Source: a candidate division WOR-3 bacterium (lineage in GTDB: Bacteria; Hydrothermota; Tepidihabitantia; Tepidihabitantales; CAIPLT01). Taken from it: a stretch of DNA of 52,634 nt. Location: NCBI GenBank assembly GCA_039801485.1, contig JBDRUR010000002.1, positions 1 through 52,634 of the forward strand, read 5' to 3'. Below are positions 14,230-52,634 of the stretch, in pieces. The translations under genes and the position numbers were made by a program. How positions within the stretch are numbered: position 1 is the first letter of the stretch; each line of letters opens with the position of its first letter. The notes below the pieces were generated by a model that did no database searches, was not told the DNA's origin, and worked only from the letters and a program-made list of their open reading frames with translations.

Positions 14230-14258
14230 ACTATAATCGACAAATAATGCTTCGTCAA
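14230..14258 (-). promoter_or_regulatory. Sigma70-type promoter of the fabH-por operon
   Basis: On the minus strand: TTGACG (14253-14258), 17 nt, TATAGT (14230-14235). Confidence 0.5.
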
Positions 14259-14704
14259 GACTTTAAACAACGAGGATAGTGTATAATATTTAATTATCGG
14301 GTTTTTGCAAAATAACAATGTTTATTTTTCTAACTCTGTTCCTGAACTTGAACCTTTATCATTTTCTTAACACGCTTCTGAACTCAATTCTGAAGATGAT
14401 GCTCTTTTCCATACTGAACTTGTTTCTAACTTCGTACCTCACGCCGGATCCGGCGTATATTCAGGGTATTTGACTCTCTGCGATTTATCATCACACTCTG
14501 ACATTTAATCTTTTTTTGATGCTCAGAAATTTTCTGAGCCCTAGCCTTACTCCCTGAGTGCATTCGGGGGATGTCCCGGGCTTGCCTTTTTTAGTTTAAC
14601 AGTAAAGGGAAATTATATTTTAATCGTATATAATATATAGACGGATTTTTTTATTAAAAGGTTTCACTAAACTTATTCAAAAAAGTCTTTTGTTTTCTAA
14701 TTAA

Positions 14705-14737
14705 TAAAAAAGGGGAAGCAATGTTTTAGCTTCCCCT
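14705..14737 (-). terminator. Rho-independent terminator of the PKD-repeat lipoprotein gene
   Basis: On the minus strand: GGGGAAGC stem, 9-nt loop, GCTTCCCC, then TTTTTT. Begins 19 nt after the stop codon. Confidence 0.75.
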
Positions 14738-14755
14738 GATATTTACGATTTTGGC

Positions 14756-21589: not shown

Positions 21590-21632
21590 GCAATAACAGT
21601 TCCTATTCTTCGTTTTTGTGAGCGAAGCAATC
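21590..21632 (+). repeat. Left copy of an inverted repeat flanking the outer-membrane-protein (OMP) gene
   Basis: GCAATAACAGTT[cctattcttcg]TTTTTGTGAGCGAAGCAATC matches the reverse complement of 23185-23214 (GCCATAACAGTTTTTGCGAGCGAAGCAATC). Confidence 0.7.
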
Positions 21633-21647
21633 ATATTTCTTGCTTAT

Positions 21648-23162
21648 TTATAAACTCAAGCCGATTCCTAAATTAAAACTAAGCGATGAGAAAAATGATG
21701 GTGAAGTCACATCACGAATAACTTCCAAGTCTTCTGGAAGGAATTTAGTAACTAATGAAAAGACATTAGACTTGATGCCGAAATCAATTTGGGCATTAGG
21801 TGCATAGGGAATAAAGTTAAGCGGTGTTCGATAACTGCCACCTAATCCGAAATAAATTGGTGCCCGCACTGGCAAAATCATGTCTTTACCTTGATTGTCG
21901 GTAAAGTAAAGATAATCAAATGATGCTAAAAGACCGGTGCGGATAGTAACTGTTGATAACGGTGCGCTGAAAAGGACCCCAAGTTTCGCATTATTGACTT
22001 CTCTTTTCTTTGGTAATGTGCCGCCGAGATACAAATCAAATACTGAAAGCGATATGCCCAAATTCAATTCGGTATATCCAGCCAAAGAGACATTTTGTTG
22101 ACTGCTAAGGGTATCACTAGATTTTGGTGATTTATTAACACTTAAAACTGCCCGGCCGTAAATGCTGTCCGGTAAGACAAAATGCACAAAATTACTATCA
22201 ATTCTGACACTATCAGGTGCTCCAGAAATGCTCAATGTTGTTAAATTATAATTTCCTGATAAAGTAGTTTTAAACCCTTGTTCAACCGAAAGTCCCATTT
22301 TAAAAAAGCCGGCTTGTAAGAGCGTGCCTAAAACAATTGACAATCGGTTAGCACTAAATTCGCCATTACCATTAACACTAATAATGGTATCGGTCAAAAA
22401 TGCATTGCCGGTAATACTGCCTTTAAATGGCGAAGCCGGGGTACCGGTTACTTGAATGTTAGAACTACCGGTAAAATTTAAGTTAGTGCCTAATTCTCCG
22501 GTATATTTCAATAGTTTAAACCCTAATCCAACGCTGCCAAAACCGAAATTATATCCACCGCCAAGAAATAACGGGGCCTTCCCCATATTTATCGCACCGC
22601 CACCATTTACTGAAAGATTTATCGGTGCCGAAATGTTCCATGTTAGTGGAATAGTAGTATCATAACCAGGACTTATGGTCGCGGTTATTGGTTGTGTAAT
22701 CTGGTAATTCACATTAAAAGTTTCCGAACCGTTTACATCAAGGCCAATCCCGACCGAAGATTTCTGCATATAACCGATGCCTAATCCTACCGGACCAATT
22801 TTCTTACTAAATCCAATAAAATTAACACCGCCAACATCGCGTAAGGTTAACTCTACTGGAATATCAATTGCGCCGTGTTCATTAGTTGCTTCAATTGCTT
22901 GCACAGTTAAATTCAATTTCGGTTTACTCGGCACCCCAAAAACAAAATTAAGACCATAATCACTAGTATAACCCAATGCCGCTGGGTTGGCAAACATTCC
23001 ATAAGTACCATAAGCTAATGCTGGTGAGATATAACTGGGATTAGCAAAAAATAGGCTAGCTTCTGGTGCCGATTGTGAAAAATTCAGGTTATATGTCGTT
23101 TGGCTGACGGCAATATTTATTAGTAAGGCACAGGCGATCAATATACATAATTTATGCGTCAT
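21648..23162 (-). CDS. Outer-membrane beta-barrel protein (FadL/PorV-like N-terminal motif)
   Basis: Signal peptide, FANPAALG motif, Gly/aromatic-rich alternating strands, terminal aromatic-rich strand. AAAGGAG SD. Confidence 0.5.
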   Translation of the reverse strand: MTHKLCILIACALLINIAVSQTTYNLNFSQSAPEASLFFANPSYISPALAYGTYGMFANPAALGYTSDYGLNFVFGVPSKPKLNLTVQAIEATNEHGAIDIPVELTLRDVGGVNFIGFSKKIGPVGLGIGYMQKSSVGIGLDVNGSETFNVNYQITQPITATISPGYDTTIPLTWNISAPINLSVNGGGAINMGKAPLFLGGGYNFGFGSVGLGFKLLKYTGELGTNLNFTGSSNIQVTGTPASPFKGSITGNAFLTDTIISVNGNGEFSANRLSIVLGTLLQAGFFKMGLSVEQGFKTTLSGNYNLTTLSISGAPDSVRIDSNFVHFVLPDSIYGRAVLSVNKSPKSSDTLSSQQNVSLAGYTELNLGISLSVFDLYLGGTLPKKREVNNAKLGVLFSAPLSTVTIRTGLLASFDYLYFTDNQGKDMILPVRAPIYFGLGGSYRTPLNFIPYAPNAQIDFGIKSNVFSLVTKFLPEDLEVIRDVTSPSFFSSLSFNLGIGLSL

Positions 23163-23184
23163 ACTAACTCCTTTCGTTTAAAGA

Positions 23185-23214
23185 GATTGCTTCGCTCGCA
23201 AAAACTGTTATGGC
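23185..23214 (-). repeat. Right copy of the inverted repeat flanking the OMP gene (inside its 5' UTR hairpin)
   Basis: See 21590-21632. It overlaps an 11-bp stem, AAAGAGATTGC (23180-23190) / GCAATCTCTTT (23213-23223). Confidence 0.7.
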
Positions 23215-23237
23215 AATCTCTTTTTTTTCATTTGGCA

Positions 23238-23266
23238 ATTTTACAACATAAAAATAACAATGTCAA
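23238..23266 (-). promoter_or_regulatory. Sigma70-type promoter of the OMP gene
   Basis: On the minus strand: TTGACA (23261-23266), 17 nt, TAAAAT (23238-23243). About 67-nt leader. Confidence 0.5.
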
Positions 23267-23299
23267 TATCATTAATTTATGTTCAAGAGATTACTATTC

Positions 23300-23760
23300 A
23301 GTTTATGGTATTTAATTAATTATGCTGGATATGGATAATGGATATGTGAAACAAGTTTTTAAGCTGGCAAATTAATTCTAATTTTCAAAAAGTCTATTTA
23401 TATATAGACTAAATTTAAAGCGGAATTTTTATCTAAGTTATTGATAACCAAAGGACTGTCACAAAAACGGCTCGACCATACTGTATAGTATAGGGGGCGG
23501 TCTTAGAGATTTTGTTTTTCGTAGTAAATTAGCGGAATTTGGTCTGGAAATTGCTTATTTATTTGGGTTGATATTTAATTCTATAATATAATTAATATAA
23601 TATTAGTTGTTATGTTTACTAACTGATAATTTTTTCGGGAAGTAGTTAAGTGTTTAATAACTAAACTATCCTGTGCGCTACTTTGATTAACAGATTGAAT
23701 TTAAGTTAGGAATTCACTGCAAATCGTTAAAATTAGTCTATTATTACCATGTGGGGTCTT
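23300..23760. repeat. Conserved noncoding element, copy A (paralogue of 52000-52500, inverted)
   Basis: Hand alignment to the reverse complement of copy B. There are perfect 30-nt and 29-nt islands plus many 8-16-nt shared blocks. No shared ORF. Confidence 0.8.
23469..23498. repeat. Invariant 30-nt dyad core of element A
   Basis: GGCTCGACCATACTGTATAGTATAGGGGGC is identical to the reverse complement of 52307-52336. Confidence 0.9.
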
Positions 23761-23765
23761 ATGAG

Positions 23766-23796
23766 GATAAAGATAAGATAAGATAAGATAAGAATT
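23766..23796. repeat. Pentanucleotide microsatellite (GATAA)n
   Basis: Sequence is GATAA-a-GATAA-GATAA-GATAA-GATAA-GAATT. Confidence 0.9.
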
Positions 23797-23875
23797 GAGA
23801 TTCTGTGCCGAAAACGGAATGACAAAAATGACAGCGTAATAGTTGGATTCGATAAAATAAGTATAGAATTATTAA

Positions 23876-23904
23876 TTCAATATCTTGGCAACATCATTTA
23901 TAAT
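23876..23904 (+). promoter_or_regulatory. Candidate sigma70-type promoter upstream of tal
   Basis: TTCAAT (23876-23881), 17 nt, TATAAT (23899-23904). Confidence 0.4.
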
Positions 23905-23919
23905 ATGCTATTTTTTCTC

Positions 23920-23947
23920 TTTACAATTTAGGTTTTTTATTTATACT
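23920..23947 (+). promoter_or_regulatory. Second candidate promoter upstream of tal (8 nt from a 25-codon ORF)
   Basis: TTTACA (23920-23925), 16 nt, TATACT (23942-23947), then 8 nt to the ATG at 23956. Confidence 0.35.
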
Positions 23948-24051
23948 ATATACCTATGCAAAAAAGAGTAATCTTCGTATTATTCTTTTTCAATCGGATT
24001 AAGTTTAATTTACCAATAACAATTAACAATTAAGTAGAAATAAAAATCGCG

Positions 24052-24082
24052 GATGGACACAATTTATAATTTTGTGTCCATC
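24052..24082 (+). promoter_or_regulatory. Perfect 11-bp inverted repeat (operator or 5' UTR hairpin) upstream of tal
   Basis: GATGGACACAA (24052-24062), spacer TTTATAATT, TTGTGTCCATC (24072-24082). Ends 16 nt before the GGAGGA SD of tal. Confidence 0.6.
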
Positions 24083-24107
24083 TGAGTTAATTATATTTGG
24101 AGGAATA

Positions 24108-24758
24108 ATGAAAATTTTTATCGACTCAGCAGATGTTAACGAAATCAAAGAAGTCGCCAGTTGGGGCATACTTGACGGTGTCACAACCAACCCGACCCTA
24201 GTGGCGAAAACTGGCCGCGAGATTAAAGAATGTGTTACCGAAATCACCAAAATTGTTGACGGTCCGATTTCGGTCGAAGTAATCAGCACCGATGCTTATG
24301 GAATGGTTAAAGAAGCTGAAGATTGGGCTAAGATTAATCCTAAAAATATCACGATAAAAATTCCGATGAGTATCGAAGGTTTAAAAGCAGTTAAAATCCT
24401 TGCCGAAAAAAATATCAAGACCAATGTTACACTGGTCTTTAGTCCCAATCAGGCACTTCTAGCCGCAAAAGCCGGCGCAACTTTTATCAGCCCGTTTGTT
24501 GGTCGGTTAGATGACATTTCACATTTTGGGATGGAAATTGTCTCAGATATTGTCCAGATATTTAACAACTACGGATTTGCCACTGAAATCATTGTCGCTA
24601 GTGTTCGTAATCCCTTGCATGTTGTTGAAGCAGCCCGAATGGGGGCACATATTGCTACCATTCCTTTTGCAGTCTTAAAACAGATGGTTATGCATCCTTT
24701 AACCGATATCGGCATTAAAAAATTCTTTGATGATTATCAAAAAATACCCAAAAAGTAA
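24108..24758 (+). CDS. tal: Transaldolase (short TalC/FSA-type)
   Basis: [15 protein letters not shown]... at 216 aa is typical of short transaldolases. The ATG at 24108 has a GGAGGA SD; the track start at 24072 lies inside the palindrome. Confidence 0.92.
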
Positions 24759-42038: not shown

Positions 42039-42049
42039 ACTATAACTAT

Positions 42050-42078
42050 ATTCTACTTCAGTAATAAATTAAAGTCAA
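42050..42078 (-). promoter_or_regulatory. Sigma70-type promoter of hslU-argF, near-leaderless
   Basis: On the minus strand: TTGACT (42073-42078), 17 nt, TAGAAT (42050-42055), then 11 nt to the ATG. No SD. Confidence 0.5.
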
Positions 42079-42612
42079 GGCAAATCGTCGGCAGTTGGGC
42101 ATGATTTTGAAATTGAATATATAGTTGATTTGGCAAGGAATCAATATAAGGCTAATAATTAAAATTTTCTAAGATAAATTTAGCAGGACATTGAAAGTTT
42201 TCCACCTTAAACAAAATTATATTGGCGATATAACTGTAAAGCACATTCATTTTTGATGTATTAGATTGATTTTCATAGATATTAGGATAAAATTTATTAA
42301 ACCAAGGGTACAGTCCCCGCCACGGCTTAAATTTGCTCAATTTGGTTCACACAAAAGTGCTGTATTTGAGTTTATTAACTTGTGTTTTATTATTTCTAAA
42401 TTGACGGATATTTCGGTGAATCATTGTCTGCATATTTAAAAGACAAGATTGAATTGGAGCATCAGGTGACTAAAGAAAATGCTAGCGAGATTAATCTTTA
42501 AGCTAGAAATGTCATTGATATCAAAGTTAGATAAGCAATCACGCTATTCAATTCAAAAAGCTATTTTGTAAAAGTTAATAAATGAGCAATTGTTCGTACC
42601 ATCGTAATCTGC

Positions 42613-42641
42613 TTGACTAAATTTTTTTATTAAATTATACT
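42613..42641 (+). promoter_or_regulatory. Sigma70-type promoter of nfo, leaderless
   Basis: TTGACT (42613-42618), 17 nt, TATACT (42636-42641), then 7 nt to the ATG at 42649. Confidence 0.55.
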
Positions 42642-42648
42642 TTTGGTA

Positions 42649-48036: not shown

Positions 48037-48639
48037 TTATGATAAGGGTGCAATAACCGCAGTTCTTTTTGATCCGCTGCCAACACCATAAATACGCACG
48101 GTCCCTAATTGGCTGAGTTCTTTTTCCACAATTTTAAATTCCCGTTCAGTTAAAATGTCCAGAGCCATTTCGCGGTTAGTTTCTAATACAATTTTGGCAA
48201 CAGCTAATGCCTTCTTTTTTAAGAAATTCTCGCGGCGGCGGCGGTAGCCGGAGACATCAGCGAAAATATCGATAGTTAATGTTGGATAGCGATGGCGGAA
48301 AATCTGGTTAATCATCGCCTGAATTGACATAATAATCATCCCGCGACGACCAATTAAGAGTCCGTCGGCGCCACGACTTCTGATGTTTGTATAATAACTA
48401 CCGTCTTCATTGATCTTCGTGCGCACCATCGCTTTTATCCCCATCAGTTCAACTAACTTTGAGACGACGGCATTTATTTCGGATTCAAGTTGTTCTGGGG
48501 TTGGCAAAGTAGTTGCACCAGATACTTTTGTTTCATTTTCCGGCTTTACACCTTCGCCAGTGGTTTGATTTTCAGCTGACTTTATTTCTTCGTTACTGGC
48601 TGATTGGTTATTATTTGTTGTTTTATTTGCTTCTGCCAT
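48037..48639 (-). CDS. jag: KH/R3H RNA-binding protein Jag/KhpB
   Basis: KH domain (LLIGRRGMIIMSIQ) plus an R3H-like C-terminus. A GGAGGT SD lies 5 nt upstream of the ATG, inside the yidC 3' end. Confidence 0.8.
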   Translation of the reverse strand: MAEANKTTNNNQSASNEEIKSAENQTTGEGVKPENETKVSGATTLPTPEQLESEINAVVSKLVELMGIKAMVRTKINEDGSYYTNIRSRGADGLLIGRRGMIIMSIQAMINQIFRHRYPTLTIDIFADVSGYRRRRENFLKKKALAVAKIVLETNREMALDILTEREFKIVEKELSQLGTVRIYGVGSGSKRTAVIAPLS

Positions 48640-50105
48640 TTTATACCTCCACGACCAATGATACTCTCGACAATTGAGAGTAAATTAAATATGAACCAAT
48701 ATAACTGTAATCCTGATGGAAAGTTTAAAAATATTACAGTCAAAAAAATTGGCATAAAAACTAAAAGCGCAATGTTTCGTTTATCAGCGCTGGTCAAAAA
48801 ATTTTGGATAAGAAACGATATTCCCATTAAAATTGGTAAAATATAGTATGGGTCTTTTAATGATAAATCCTGAAGCCAAAAGGCAAAGCGGGCACCACGT
48901 AACTCAATTGTTTTTTGTAAGACTGAATATAATGCCCAGAAAATTGGTAATTGAAAGATTAATGGTAAACAGCCTGAGAAGGGGTTTATTTTATATAAAC
49001 GATATAATTGCATTGTTTCTTGATTTAGTGCCTGCGGATTGTCCTTATATTTCTTTTTCAACTCTTCGATTTTTGGTTGTAAAAGTTGTAGTTGTTGCAT
49101 CTGTTTAGTGGTCATGCGTGTTAATGGGAAGAAGATGCCTTTCATAATTAGCGCAAAAACAATAATTGCAAAACCATAGTTTCTAAAGATTGAATACAAA
49201 AATTTTAACACTTTCAAGATAGCAATTGCGAAGATCTTTGTCCAACCCAGATCAGTTAATGTTTCCCAATTGGTTCGATGACTTTTTAAGATCTCATAAT
49301 CGATCGGTCCAAAATACAATGTATATTTATGGGAAGCATTAATTGTTGGTTCGTAGCTATAACCAATCCGGCCATCGGGCAAATGTTGGAATCGGCATTT
49401 TGCTTGATTTTGTGGATTTGATAAAATCGTTGCAAAGTATTTAGATTTCAACGCAACCCAGCGGATATTTTCAATTGATTTATCGGCAATCGATTTTACT
49501 TTATTTGCCGCAATTTTGTTTACTTTTTTATCATCTTGATAGAAAAGACTGAAATAACGAATTTCATCTTTGGCGGTCTGTTTTTTCTCGGTAAATGCCA
49601 ACCCGGGCTCATATAGTATCTTATACGGCGTCGTCGATAAATTTTCTTTTTCGATTATCATTGTTAAGGAATAGTTGGAATGAAGTACAAATGTTTTTCT
49701 TACCGGTCCCTGAAATGTAATCGAGGAGTCATCTTGAGCAATTATTGCGTAATTTGTTGTTAATGAATCATTGATAAATTGCGTTTGTAAAACTCGGCTG
49801 TTTTCTGGTATAAGTTCTGCTTGATACTTTTTTAAATAGGCTGATTTAATACTAGCGCCGATATTTGAGAAAACAACCTTCACCTGAGTATTTTCTAAAA
49901 TAACTTCAGTTTCCGGAATTGACGTCGTTGATTGTTCAATTTTTAGAATTTGAGTTGGTAGTGATTGTGGCGGAGTTATTGTCTCAGATTTTGTTGCTAC
50001 CGAAGTCATTGGCGGTAATGAGCGCTTCGGCGTAATTAGCTGCCAGACAAATAACACCACCATTATTAATAAGAATGCAATAATTAACCTCGTGGTATCG
50101 CTCAT
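48582..50105 (-). CDS. yidC: Membrane protein insertase YidC
   Basis: N-terminal TM helix, a large periplasmic domain, and a conserved C-terminal 5-TM core (MQLYRLYKINPFSGCLP). Confidence 0.93.
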   Translation of the reverse strand: MSDTTRLIIAFLLIMVVLFVWQLITPKRSLPPMTSVATKSETITPPQSLPTQILKIEQSTTSIPETEVILENTQVKVVFSNIGASIKSAYLKKYQAELIPENSRVLQTQFINDSLTTNYAIIAQDDSSITFQGPVRKTFVLHSNYSLTMIIEKENLSTTPYKILYEPGLAFTEKKQTAKDEIRYFSLFYQDDKKVNKIAANKVKSIADKSIENIRWVALKSKYFATILSNPQNQAKCRFQHLPDGRIGYSYEPTINASHKYTLYFGPIDYEILKSHRTNWETLTDLGWTKIFAIAILKVLKFLYSIFRNYGFAIIVFALIMKGIFFPLTRMTTKQMQQLQLLQPKIEELKKKYKDNPQALNQETMQLYRLYKINPFSGCLPLIFQLPIFWALYSVLQKTIELRGARFAFWLQDLSLKDPYYILPILMGISFLIQNFLTSADKRNIALLVFMPIFLTVIFLNFPSGLQLYWFIFNLLSIVESIIGRGGIKWQKQIKQQIITNQPVTKK

Positions 50106-50129
50106 AAAGTATTACTAATAGAATTTTGA

Positions 50130-50357
50130 TTAATCAACCGGGTCATAGCCACCATGATTTAATGGATTACATCGTAATATTCGTTTGATAGTAAGCACGC
50201 TACCTTTGATTAGTCCATATTTTAATAACGCTTGTTTGGCATACTCCGAACAGGTCGGATAAAAACGGCACGTTTTTGGTAGTATCGGACTTAAAATTAG
50301 TTGATAGCTACTTATCAACGCAATCGGTATTTTTATTAGAAGCGATGTGCTTTTCAT
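50130..50357 (-). CDS. yidD: Membrane protein insertion efficiency factor YidD
   Basis: [11 protein letters not shown] motif, 75 aa. Confidence 0.9.
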
Positions 50358-50755
50358 ACTATGTTTCGGACTAACGACAATATTTCGTTTTTTAATTGGT
50401 GAAAATCAATATTAATGATATTAGGTCGAGGACGGATTACATAGGCGTATTTTTCTGAAAAATATTCTTTATTGGTGCGATAGATTTCTTTAAGATATCG
50501 TTTTATTCGGTTACGAACAACAGCTTTGTCAAAGGTGTTTTTCGCAATGTAAACGCCAAATTTTCGGCAGTTACTATTGGCATAAAACAAACTAAAATAT
50601 GGGTTTAATATCACTTTTCCTGATAAAAATACTGATTGATATTCGTTTTCCTTTCTAATCAGTTCGGATTTAGCTAACCGACAATCTTTTATCATTTTCT
50701 TAATATAGTTAATTAAAGCAAATTGGGGATGAGTACGCTCATCCGTAAGTATCAT
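50354..50755 (-). CDS. rnpA: RNase P protein component
   Basis: RNR-type motif ([13 protein letters not shown]) and a position between rpmH and yidD. The true start may be an internal Met (MIKDCRL). Confidence 0.85.
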
Positions 50756-50769
50756 CTCAAGTCTAAAGA

Positions 50770-50907
50770 TTATACGGTTAAAACCTTTCGGCCTTTTTTA
50801 CGCCTTCTTTTTAAGACTTTTCGGCCCCAATGGGTTTTCATTCGAGCACGAAAGCCGTGAGTTCTTTTTCGTTTAATTACCGATGGTTGATATGTTCTTT
50901 TCGGCAT
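50770..50907 (-). CDS. rpmH: 50S ribosomal protein L34 (not in the ORF track)
   Basis: My own translation of the minus strand gives [45 protein letters not shown] (45 aa). Confidence 0.95.
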
Positions 50908-50912
50908 AGGTT

Positions 50913-50940
50913 ATCATAATGGAATTAACCGAAAAGTCAA
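50913..50940 (-). promoter_or_regulatory. Sigma70-type promoter of rpmH-rnpA, leaderless
   Basis: On the minus strand: TTGACT (50935-50940), 16 nt, TATGAT (50913-50918), then 5 nt to the ATG. Confidence 0.5.
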
Positions 50941-51057
50941 GAGTTAAGTGGTCGTTCTAAAAATTTGTTACTGAAATTACGTATAGAGAAAAAGAAAAAA
51001 TTTAGTGTTTTCAACGCTTTTGTTGGGAGAAATTTGGCTTCACAAATGTTATGCTAT

Positions 51058-51954
51058 TTATTGTTCTTCAGCGCGAGGATGGGCTTTTTGATAGATCTTT
51101 TTTAAGTGTTCAATTGAAATGTGGGTGTAAATTTGAGTTGCTGATAACGAACTATGTCCTAAAAGCTCTTGAACCGCTCTTAAATCAGCACCACGTTCTA
51201 AAAGATGGGTAGCAAAAGAATGGCGCAGAGTATGAGGATTAGTATGGCTGACTTCAGAAACACGAGAAATGAGCTGATTAACGATTTTCTGAACCGAACG
51301 GGTACTGAGCCGTCTGCCTTGTTTGTTTAATAATAATGCAGGATTTGTTTTGTTTTTACGGACCGCTAAATATTCTTTTATTGCCTGCTGAGCATAACTA
51401 CCCAAAGGTACAATTCGTTGTTTGTTTGCTTTGCCTTTGACTAATATTACTTCATTGTAAAAATCGATATCAGCGATATTTAAATTTACTAGTTCGCTGG
51501 CACGAAGACCAGCACCGTATAATACTTCGATGATTGCTTTGTTTCTAAGGGTTATTTCATCGTTGCCCTGAAATGATAATACTTTTTGTATCTGATACTG
51601 GGTAAGAAATCCGGGTAAAGTTTTGGTGATTTTCGGTGTTTTTATTGCCTTGGCGGGATTGGTTGCTAAGATCTTCTTACGCGTCAAGTATTTAAAAAAT
51701 GATTTTAAACTACTTAATTTACGGGCAACCGAGCGTTTATCATAACCATATTTCAAAAGATAACCAACAAAATCCCTAATGTCATCGCGCTTTACTGTTA
51801 AAATATCTTGATGATTTTTACGGTCAATCAGAAATTCTAAAAATTGACCAAGGTCAATCTGGTAAGCCCTAATGGTATGTTGGGAAAAGTTCTTTTCAGA
51901 ACTGAGATAATCTAAAAATTTATGTACTCGTTCATCTGATGGGTAGATTGGCAT
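51058..51954 (-). CDS. xerC: Tyrosine recombinase XerC/XerD family
   Basis: Catalytic pattern LRASE...HTLRHSFATHLL...GHSSLSATQIYTH. I start the gene at the ATG at 51954 (MPIYPSDERVHKFLDYL) because the track TTG start at 51990 is the -35 hexamer. Confidence 0.9.
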   Translation of the reverse strand: MPIYPSDERVHKFLDYLSSEKNFSQHTIRAYQIDLGQFLEFLIDRKNHQDILTVKRDDIRDFVGYLLKYGYDKRSVARKLSSLKSFFKYLTRKKILATNPAKAIKTPKITKTLPGFLTQYQIQKVLSFQGNDEITLRNKAIIEVLYGAGLRASELVNLNIADIDFYNEVILVKGKANKQRIVPLGSYAQQAIKEYLAVRKNKTNPALLLNKQGRRLSTRSVQKIVNQLISRVSEVSHTNPHTLRHSFATHLLERGADLRAVQELLGHSSLSATQIYTHISIEHLKKIYQKAHPRAEEQ

Positions 51955-51999: not shown

Positions 52000-52500
52000 T
52001 TGGTTCGGTAGCGGATAATATTCTGTGTAAAATTAGACCTTTTAGTTTAGTGTAAGATGACAATTAACCATTTTTTAACGATCGGTACTGAATTCCTAAC
52101 TTAATGCCAAGCTCATAATAAAAGTTATGCCCAGATTGGTTTAGTTACAAAGCACTTAACCGCCTTCCGAGCAAATTGTCGTTCTGCTGCCATAGCCGCT
52201 AATAATATTTCAACCAATTTAGGCAATTGAACATCAACGCAAATAAATCGATAATTACCATAAAAATTTCAGCTAATTTATCGGGTAAAACAAAATCCCT
52301 AAGTCAGCCCCCTATACTATACAGTATGGTCGAGCCATTTTTATGATAACTTCTTGGTTATCAAGTAAGTTAGATAAAAATTCTGCGTAAAATTTAGTCT
52401 ATATATAAATAGACTTTTGTAAATGAATAAATATTAACTTTTTTAGTGCCAAAAAACCTGTTTGACATACCGAGCACAAGAGAATCTCATAAATTAAATA
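52000..52500. repeat. Conserved noncoding element, copy B (paralogue of 23300-23760, inverted)
   Basis: See copy A. It fills most of the 575-nt gap between xerC and ntpD. Confidence 0.8.
52307..52336. repeat. Invariant 30-nt dyad core of element B
   Basis: GCCCCCTATACTATACAGTATGGTCGAGCC is the reverse complement of 23469-23498. Confidence 0.9.
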
Positions 52501-52529
52501 GGATTTCTTTAATATATTGCAGGTTAAAC

Positions 52530-52557
52530 TTGACTTAAATTATATTTTAATTAAAAT
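52530..52557 (+). promoter_or_regulatory. Sigma70-type promoter of ntpD, leaderless
   Basis: TTGACT (52530-52535), 16 nt, TAAAAT (52552-52557), then 7 nt to the ATG at 52565. Confidence 0.5.
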
Positions 52558-52564
52558 GGTTTTT

Positions 52565-52634
52565 ATGCGAATAAGCGTTAGTGCCACCCGAATGGAACTT
52601 TTACGCTTGCGACGGCGATTAATTGTCGCACAGC
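52565..52634 (+). CDS. ntpD: V-type ATP synthase subunit D, 5' fragment (runs off the window)
   Basis: MRISVSATRMELLRLRRRLIVAQ matches the conserved NtpD/AtpD N-terminus (xxPTRMELLxLKxRL). Only 23 codons are visible. Confidence 0.65.
   Translation, partial: MRISVSATRMELLRLRRRLIVAQ

Follow-up and report, generated by a model that had tools for sequence, protein, structure and literature searches.

The window analysed here, an entire contig of 52,634 nt from a candidate division WOR-3 bacterium, contains two copies of a genuine non-coding element that is selectively maintained. This genome has two or more members of the family, and other WOR-3 bacteria have related ones. Copy A lies at 23330-23775 on the + strand and copy B, inverted with respect to A, lies at 52033-52509 on the - strand. 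Both are designated type 1. The best reading of these sequences is that A and B are old paralogues of a self-contained, lineage-restricted non-coding unit of ~450 nt present in one clade of WOR-3 bacteria. An inverted second copy had been proposed in the original prediction, and it is recovered by an inverted-repeat search, by MAFFT alignment and by nhmmer. Its measured span, 52033-52509, corrects the predicted 52000-52500. MAFFT and an nhmmer profile both extend the homology over ~450 nt (nhmmer envelopes 23310-23774 for A and 52509-52033 for B).

The two longest inverted repeats in the window are those formed by the two copies. The first (I1) pairs 23441-23732 with 52073-52364, is 292 nt long and ungapped, and is 73% complementary; the second (I2) pairs 23383-23440 with 52366-52423, 58 nt that are 90% complementary. 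Across the core, 84 of 350 aligned positions are mismatched, giving an identity of ~76%, which replaces the two thirds estimated previously. With its core 24% diverged the pair is not a recent duplication, in agreement with the original prediction. The ungapped block (23441-23732, +, against 52073-52364, -) has 78 mismatches, 42 of them transitions and 36 transversions, and no indels. Within the core, indels are limited to one single-base event at 23440/23441 and another near 23733; larger gaps appear in the MAFFT alignment in the 5' flank. Indels that are not multiples of three had been described between the conserved blocks; the central 292 nt have no indels of any kind.

Two perfect islands are found within the copies, both at the predicted coordinates. 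Island 1 (AAAAGTCTATTTATATATAGACTAAATTT, 23388-23416, +) is identical in copy B (52390-52418, -) and is a 7-6-7 palindrome, AGTCTAT / ATAGACT, the right arm of which, ATAGACT, is also invariant in the type 2 copies described below. Island 2 (GGCTCGACCATACTGTATAGTATAGGGGGC, 23469-23498, +) is identical in copy B at 52307-52336 (-) and is predicted to form a hairpin, CCAUACU-GUAU-AGUAU(A)GG, closed by GCUC/GGGC. The window has exactly two instances of a 21-mer taken from island 2, where none is expected from shuffles, and perfect runs of at least 30 and 29 nt have P ~1e-4 under random placement of the mismatches. All the shorter shared blocks that had been listed are present in the MAFFT alignment. 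A conserved inverted repeat or hairpin, AGTTAAGT-N8-ACTAAACT, lies at 23644-23667 (+; 52138-52161 in B); its foot pair is A-U in A and G-C in B and in L007, a contig from a relative, and the L007 version has one G-U. The 3' end carries a bipartite conserved block, TTAAGTTAGGAATTCA-N6-ATCGTTAAAA(T), at 23701-23733 (+; 52073-52104 in B), which is also found in L007. A 3' box, TTAAAATTAGTCTAT (23727-23741, +), is an inverted copy, at 14 of 15 positions, of ATAGACTAAATTTAA at 23404-23418, and is kept in L007 and degenerate in B. Boxes are repeated within the element, namely AGTCTAT and GCGGAATTT: AGTCTAT is found again near the 3' end of A and of L007 but not of B, and the 18-22 nt following the palindrome are repeated ~360 nt downstream in B and in a further homologue, L015. 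Three palindromes would be operator-like sites if the element acts as DNA: AGTCTAT-N6-ATAGACT, TGATAAC-N6-GTTATCA and AGTTAAGT-N8-ACTAAACT. Directly downstream of copy A, at 23765-23795, there is a (GATAA)n pentanucleotide run, GGATAAAGATAAGATAAGATAAGATAAGAATTG, and L007 has a single GGATAAGAATT unit at the matching place after its own copy.

The absence of a shared ORF, and with it the non-coding nature of the element, had been predicted and is borne out by several results. There are stops in all six frames of both copies, the mismatches in the 292-nt block are distributed over the codon phases as 30/22/26 and thus without 3-nt periodicity, and nine translated frames gave no Pfam match. The original prediction could assign the element to no RNA family, and this is also borne out. 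In a search of Rfam 15 (4227 models), first at the gathering threshold and then with E up to 10, the only matches in the window at the gathering threshold were two tRNAs, and with E up to 10 the copies and homologues (A, B, L011, L007, L001, L015 and L003) gave only sub-threshold noise from eukaryotic snoRNA, miRNA and lncRNA models. With blastn, nothing in the phage and plasmid records matched at E up to 0.01; viral contigs, scanned with motifs four times, yielded no matches, and a literature search found no paper mentioning both WOR-3 and non-coding RNA. The family is, on this evidence, a genuine new candidate that matches no known family, and is not yet a demonstrated RNA.

More specific functions were considered and dropped. 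A replication origin was rejected as the DnaA box TTATCCACA, allowing up to one mismatch, occurs 20 times against 16.5 expected and does not cluster in either copy; the GC-skew profile does not point to A or B as oriC either. A sponge for a CsrA/RsmA-type protein was rejected as GGA occurs six times in A and three times in B, against 3.5 and 4.4 expected; among the copies the motif is enriched only in L011. In a seed-pairing search of the islands against the 5' regions of the 47 genes in the window, shuffled islands formed stronger duplexes than the best found with the real ones.

The genes around the two copies share little. Copy A sits between tal (+) and a 504-aa WOR-3-specific OMP-like gene (21648-23162, -), which is transcribed away from it from a promoter, TTGACA-17-TAAAAT, at 23266-23238. 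The gap between these genes had been described as gene-free and 946 nt long; gene-free it is, and its computed length is 945 nt (23163-24107, the OMP ORF ending at 23162 and the tal ATG lying at 24108). The tal gene has a promoter of its own, TTTACA-16-TATACT at 23920-23947, and a leader block of ~65 nt (within 23920-24107) that is conserved in the relatives L016, L017 and L018, none of which has the element upstream of tal. Given this promoter and a leader that is conserved where the element is missing, copy A is not the regulatory region of tal. In L017, the gene upstream of tal is not an OMP homologue. The tal leader block has features of its own. Its U-rich start is predicted to pair with the Shine-Dalgarno sequence GGAGGAA and the block has no Rfam match, and on this model it may be a translational control element. 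The tal 5' UTR also contains a near-perfect 12-bp hairpin, GGATGGACACAA...TTGTGTCCATC (24051-24083), just upstream of the ribosome-binding site; this hairpin is absent from L016, and L017 has other repeats instead. Inverted copies of GATTGCTTCGCTCGCAAAAAC at 21612-21632 and 23185-23205 bracket the OMP-like gene, and the same REP-like motif, 'cattgcgagcg...gcaatc', is found at 2880-2925 of L015, between the type 2 element and the neighbouring gene.

Copy B sits between xerC (51058-51954, -), which is downstream of it on the same strand and has its own promoter at 51990-51962, and an ORF starting at 52565 (+). This ORF (52565-52634, MRISVSATRMELLRLRRRLIVAQ...) begins 56 nt beyond copy B, has a promoter, TTGACT-16-TAAAAT, at 52530-52557, and runs off the end of the contig; the 23 residues available give no Pfam match, and we take them to resemble the N-terminus of V-type ATPase subunit D. 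The xerC gene lies directly upstream of an rpmH-rnpA-yidD-yidC cluster on the - strand (48582-51954), and in L008, L009 and L012 xerC is followed by Por_Secre_tail genes instead. Gene-free gaps of more than 500 nt are also found at 14231-14742 and 42039-42642; neither has an Rfam match and neither is like the element. The neighbours of the element vary: an NHL-repeat gene, the ORF at 52565, the OMP-like gene and xerC, the last in either orientation. The element is most likely, judged by its contexts, an autonomous unit and not the leader of one gene.

Homologues of the element are present in related contigs and none is a piece of a known gene or IS, so that the original prediction is not refuted on these grounds. 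The closest named relatives of the OMP-like protein, XerC and transaldolase are from candidate division WOR-3 MAGs. Related genomes are present in the Logan runs SRR32459165, SRR32459166, SRR27730047 and ERR3772643 and in JGI 3300031707, 3300035701 and 3300036774. L007, a Logan contig whose XerC is 93% identical to that of the window, begins inside the element and so has its 3' half, at the matching position upstream of xerC. In L001, whose OMP-like protein is 89% identical, the 5' flank of the element adjoins that gene and the contig stops just before island 1. A diverged form, which we refer to as type 2, is found upstream of xerC in the opposite orientation in L011, L009 and L010; XerC is 78% identical in L009 and L010. 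In these two contigs the type 2 element is interrupted by an IS30-like insertion, with a transposase gene (N-terminus MNTKYSHLKQEERDQIFSLLEDGKNQNEIANII) inside the element (L009 1-150 / L010 1-105), and the IS forms the end of both contigs. L011, which has no such insertion, matches them at 99.3% identity as far as the point of insertion. L011 also has a GC-rich repeat at 1010-1130 (ggcgagggtaaacc...cccctcaccc...gggagggaataaagggaggg) between the element and xerC, and, at 262-417, an ORF of 51 aa, preceded by a good ribosome-binding site, which lies ~60 nt beyond the outward 3' promoter-like site of the element. A further type 2 copy, L015, was found in JGI metagenomes with a relaxed 5' motif and lies between an NHL-repeat gene and a Por_Secre_tail gene. 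The relaxed pattern matched two metagenome contigs and no GTDB genomes. Neither it nor the island-2 21-mer matched any GTDB species representative, and the exact 21-mer had no matches in the viral, genome and metagenome collections.

Type 2 also includes L003, in which the OMP-like protein is 61% identical and the gap upstream of its gene resembles type 2 (nhmmer E 2.5e-6; Smith-Waterman z 6.7-12.5) and not copies A and B (z 0.2 against copy A). Homology was not significant for the corresponding gap in L005 (z 1.4-2.8), despite a common 12-mer, TTTTCAAAAAGT, and no element is found upstream of xerC in the relatives L008 and L012. Type 2 is represented by L011, L015 and L003, which have a perfect island of their own, and by the interrupted L009 and L010. 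In L011 and L015 about 61 nt at the apex of the predicted hairpin are 100% identical; this island occupies the place equivalent to island 2 and differs from it in sequence. The spacer of the type 2 palindrome differs between L011 and L015. As type 2 has its own perfect island at the equivalent place, the copies group by lineage and not by locus. This pattern would suggest that the copies have been homogenised or have co-evolved with a partner common to them.

The comparison with L007 provides a measure of constraint. The xerC genes of the window and L007 are 89.6% identical in DNA and only 64% identical at fourfold-degenerate sites, which indicates that neutral sites are heavily diverged. In this comparison the neutral spacer separating xerC from the element requires 25 gap columns over ~100 nt, against three gap columns in 200 nt for the 3' half of the element, where the blocks are kept. 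In this 3' half, identity is 68% between B and L007, 66% between A and L007 and 63% between A and B, so that orthologue and paralogue are about equally distant. Judging from these values, the variable parts of the element drift near the neutral rate, and both its blocks and its length are conserved. Since the blocks persist and indels are almost absent at a fourfold-degenerate identity of 64%, these alignments show the element to be under selective constraint. Purifying selection on an RNA structure or on protein-binding sites had been suggested; the constraint itself is upheld by the islands (P ~1e-4), the 292 nt without an indel and the blocks in another species, and RNA structure as its target is not established, given the weak fold z-scores and the behaviour of L003 described below.

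The explanation we favour, at somewhat less than an even chance, is that the element represents a small family of independently transcribed non-coding RNA genes. The RNA-versus-DNA question rests on five usable sequences. Taking the + strand of copy A as the forward strand, the consensus-fold z-scores against column shuffles are -1.92 for type 1 (7/200 shuffles) and -2.38 for type 2 (3/200), compared with -1.23 and -0.87 for the reverse strand. The signal is located in the 5' domains, with none in the 3' domains. Single-sequence MFE z-scores for both strands of A and B are unremarkable (-0.37, -0.84, -0.80 and -0.75), the two-sequence alignments contain five and eight compensatory pairs, and a joint alignment of type 1 and type 2 gave no common fold. 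Of the helices predicted from L011 and L015, 27 of 51 pairs are kept in held-out L003, as many as in slid controls. Several substitutions between copies are G-U compatible on the forward strand only, for example CUAAUC/GAUUAG versus CCAAUC/GGUUGG in type 2, the L007 version of the 23644-23667 hairpin and, in A, the UGAUA/UGUCA stem. In all five copies G exceeds C on the forward strand, whichever genomic strand this is (skew +0.18 to +0.25), mainly at conserved positions. The strand-specific features, among them the modest consensus-fold signal, favour a forward RNA.

Signals for transcription are found on both strands. The candidate forward promoter, TTTTCA-17-TAGACT (23382-23410, +; TTTACA-16-TAGACT at 52423-52396 in B), overlaps the island-1 palindrome and scores 8-9/12, compared with 10-11/12 for the real promoters of this genome, which have the form TTGACA-16/17-TAAAAT and include those of both tRNA genes. 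By eye, no sigma-54 or ECF-type promoter motifs are conserved between the copies upstream of island 1, and the forward strand has no intrinsic terminator. Other features favour the reverse strand. There the palindrome is followed by a T-run and resembles a weak terminator, with only two G-C pairs; in type 2 the palindrome has an A-C mismatch on the forward strand and a G-U pair on the reverse. A reverse promoter-like site is positionally conserved in every copy (TTAACG-16-TAACTT in type 1, TTAATC-16-TAAAAT or TAAATT in type 2), and at the palindrome end the neighbouring gene invariably runs in the same direction as the reverse strand. The 3' block is also promoter-like in the forward, outward direction (TTAGGA-16-TAAAAT in type 1, TTGACA-17-GACAAT or TAGACA-17-GAAAAT in type 2). 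As this 3' block reads both ways, direction is not decidable from sequence.

If the element does encode RNAs, the transcribed strand would be + for A and - for B, a choice we prefer only slightly over the opposite strand. Transcription would be driven from the site overlapping the island-1 palindrome (TTTTCA/TTTACA, 16-17 nt, TAGACT) and would start near 23417 in A and near 52389 in B. The RNA body would then be ~320 nt long, and it is over this region that length is strictly constrained. Its first ~170 nt are predicted to form a long irregular hairpin with the invariant island 2 at the tip, and its 3' end would carry the bipartite block TTAAGTTAGGAATTCA...ATCGTTAAAA, which is observed as conserved sequence. 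The invariant islands may be contact surfaces for one shared trans-acting partner, either a protein or a nucleic acid. Such a partner would explain why the same perfect island is found in all copies within one lineage and why a different perfect island is found in the same relative place in the type 2 lineage.

The conserved blocks might instead act as DNA. In that case the element would be a phased array of protein-binding sites on which a nucleoprotein complex forms, with no RNA product needed, for example a regulatory or architectural region for the adjacent gene or a site for a site-specific recombinase. We consider this fairly unlikely, though several features fit. The blocks are kept as sequence with variable spacers, when helices would be expected to covary, and the absence of indels fits helical phasing. 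The recurrence of the AGTCTAT box at the 3' end in A and L007 and of the 18-22-nt segment following the palindrome in B and L015 would suit such an array, and a recombinase or DNA-binding protein common to all copies would need a perfectly identical core. The gene at the palindrome end always points away from the element, at four independent loci and two orthologous ones, and the structural support for an RNA is weak. Nevertheless, the strand-consistent excess of G over C and the substitutions that are G-U compatible on one strand are not expected for purely double-stranded recognition. The neighbouring genes have no common function and each has a strong promoter of its own, bacterial regulatory regions are usually shorter than 450 bp, there is no enrichment of DnaA boxes (20 versus 16.5 expected) and no candidate binding protein has been identified.

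A further possibility is that the copies are what is left of a mobile or duplicative repeat without autonomy, either MITE-like or derived from an IS, which spread through intergenic regions, perhaps carrying outward promoters, and has since decayed, its conserved blocks being former transposase or recombinase sites or parts exapted later. We regard this as unlikely. A repeat of this kind would account for the multi-copy, intergenic distribution and for the variable occupancy of the flanking loci: the element is absent upstream of tal in L016, L017 and L018, and upstream of xerC it is absent in L008 and L012 and present in the window, L007 and L011, in L011 in opposite orientation. It would also fit the grouping of copies by lineage, in that L003, beside an OMP-like gene, resembles type 2 and not A. 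Copy A has a TIR-like pair of 15 nt (23404-23418 / 23727-23741, 14/15), promoter-like sites face outward at the 3' end, and the Logan contigs of the closest relative (L001 and L007) break inside the element. The TIR-like pair is, however, degenerate in B, and the homology between A and B runs ~75 nt past its left arm; a reading of the pair as TIRs or as part of an inverton is weakened accordingly. There is no direct target-site duplication flanking either copy, and the copies are only 63-76% identical. Copies within the genome that are 24-37% diverged and still have invariant islands and no indels indicate selection, not decay. Furthermore, no similarity to a Pfam family or to a phage or plasmid record was found, there is no linked transposase, the IS30-like gene in L009 and L010 having been inserted into the element, and different species have kept the element beside xerC and the OMP-like gene.

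That the element is a small coding gene or pseudogene, or that the similarity is due to chance or to an assembly artefact, is highly improbable: one frame does yield similar peptides in A and B (KNGSTILYSIGG.LRDFV..KLAE), but in A it has no start codon and in B it is interrupted by a TGA, the stops, codon phases and Pfam result given above led us to drop a coding function, and the independent homologues in contigs from other samples rule out chance or artefact.

Returning to the reading of the element as a family of RNA genes, we tentatively raise a further suggestion, in which we place less confidence, that it represents a new class of large (~320-450 nt) paralogous non-coding RNAs confined to a clade within the phylum WOR-3, with at least two loci per genome and islands of 30-60 nt that change between lineages and are the same in all copies of one genome. 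If this is true, the island pattern would reflect concerted evolution or co-evolution with a dedicated trans-acting partner. No cultured member of WOR-3 is known to have been studied in depth, and a non-coding unit that is conserved, present in several copies and marked by lineage-specific islands would offer an entry point to RNA or nucleoprotein regulation in this group. The element would also suit the study of paralogous non-coding copies in which short segments are kept identical and the remainder drifts near the neutral rate. Even as an array of binding sites or a repeat in decay, it would mark loci at which short-read assemblies of these genomes break.

Several known systems resemble the element in part. 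The 7-6-7 palindrome of island 1, the presence of three copies beside xerC, the perfect identity of the core and the inverted arrangement of two copies are reminiscent of dif/Xer sites and the core sites of invertons. Since XerC served as the query for retrieving those loci, the adjacency to xerC is in part an artefact of sampling. Unlike dif, copies A and L015 are away from xerC and the type 2 spacer differs between L011 and L015; the element is not known to resemble the dif consensus, and a dif-like site was dropped since only the architecture is alike. The Correia/NEMIS, ERIC, BOX and RUP repeats share with the element a multi-copy intergenic distribution, inverted repeats, promoter-like sequences and a variable presence among relatives. 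Unlike these repeats, the element is larger and highly diverged, with invariant islands and without indels; it has no target-site duplication, and a terminal inverted repeat is found only in A and L007.

Among RNAs, OLE, GOLLD, ROOL, HEARO/omega RNA and raiA are, like the element, several hundred nt long and intergenic, with conserved blocks, and are found in narrow groups of mostly uncultured bacteria. These RNAs have strong folds supported by covariation, whereas structural support for the element is marginal and no Rfam model matches it; the element has no IscB, TnpB or other associated gene near it. Families of paralogous sRNAs with an invariant stretch include Qrr1-5 of Vibrio, with an identical region of ~32 nt, OmrA/B and PrrF1/2. 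The Qrr, OmrA/B and PrrF RNAs are ~80-150 nt long and have clear promoters and Rho-independent terminators. The element differs from them in its length of 320-450 nt, its weak promoter-like site, the absence of a recognisable terminator and the absence of complementary targets in the window. It resembles them in having several intergenic paralogues, each standing alone beside unrelated genes, in which a perfect island is maintained within diverged sequence.
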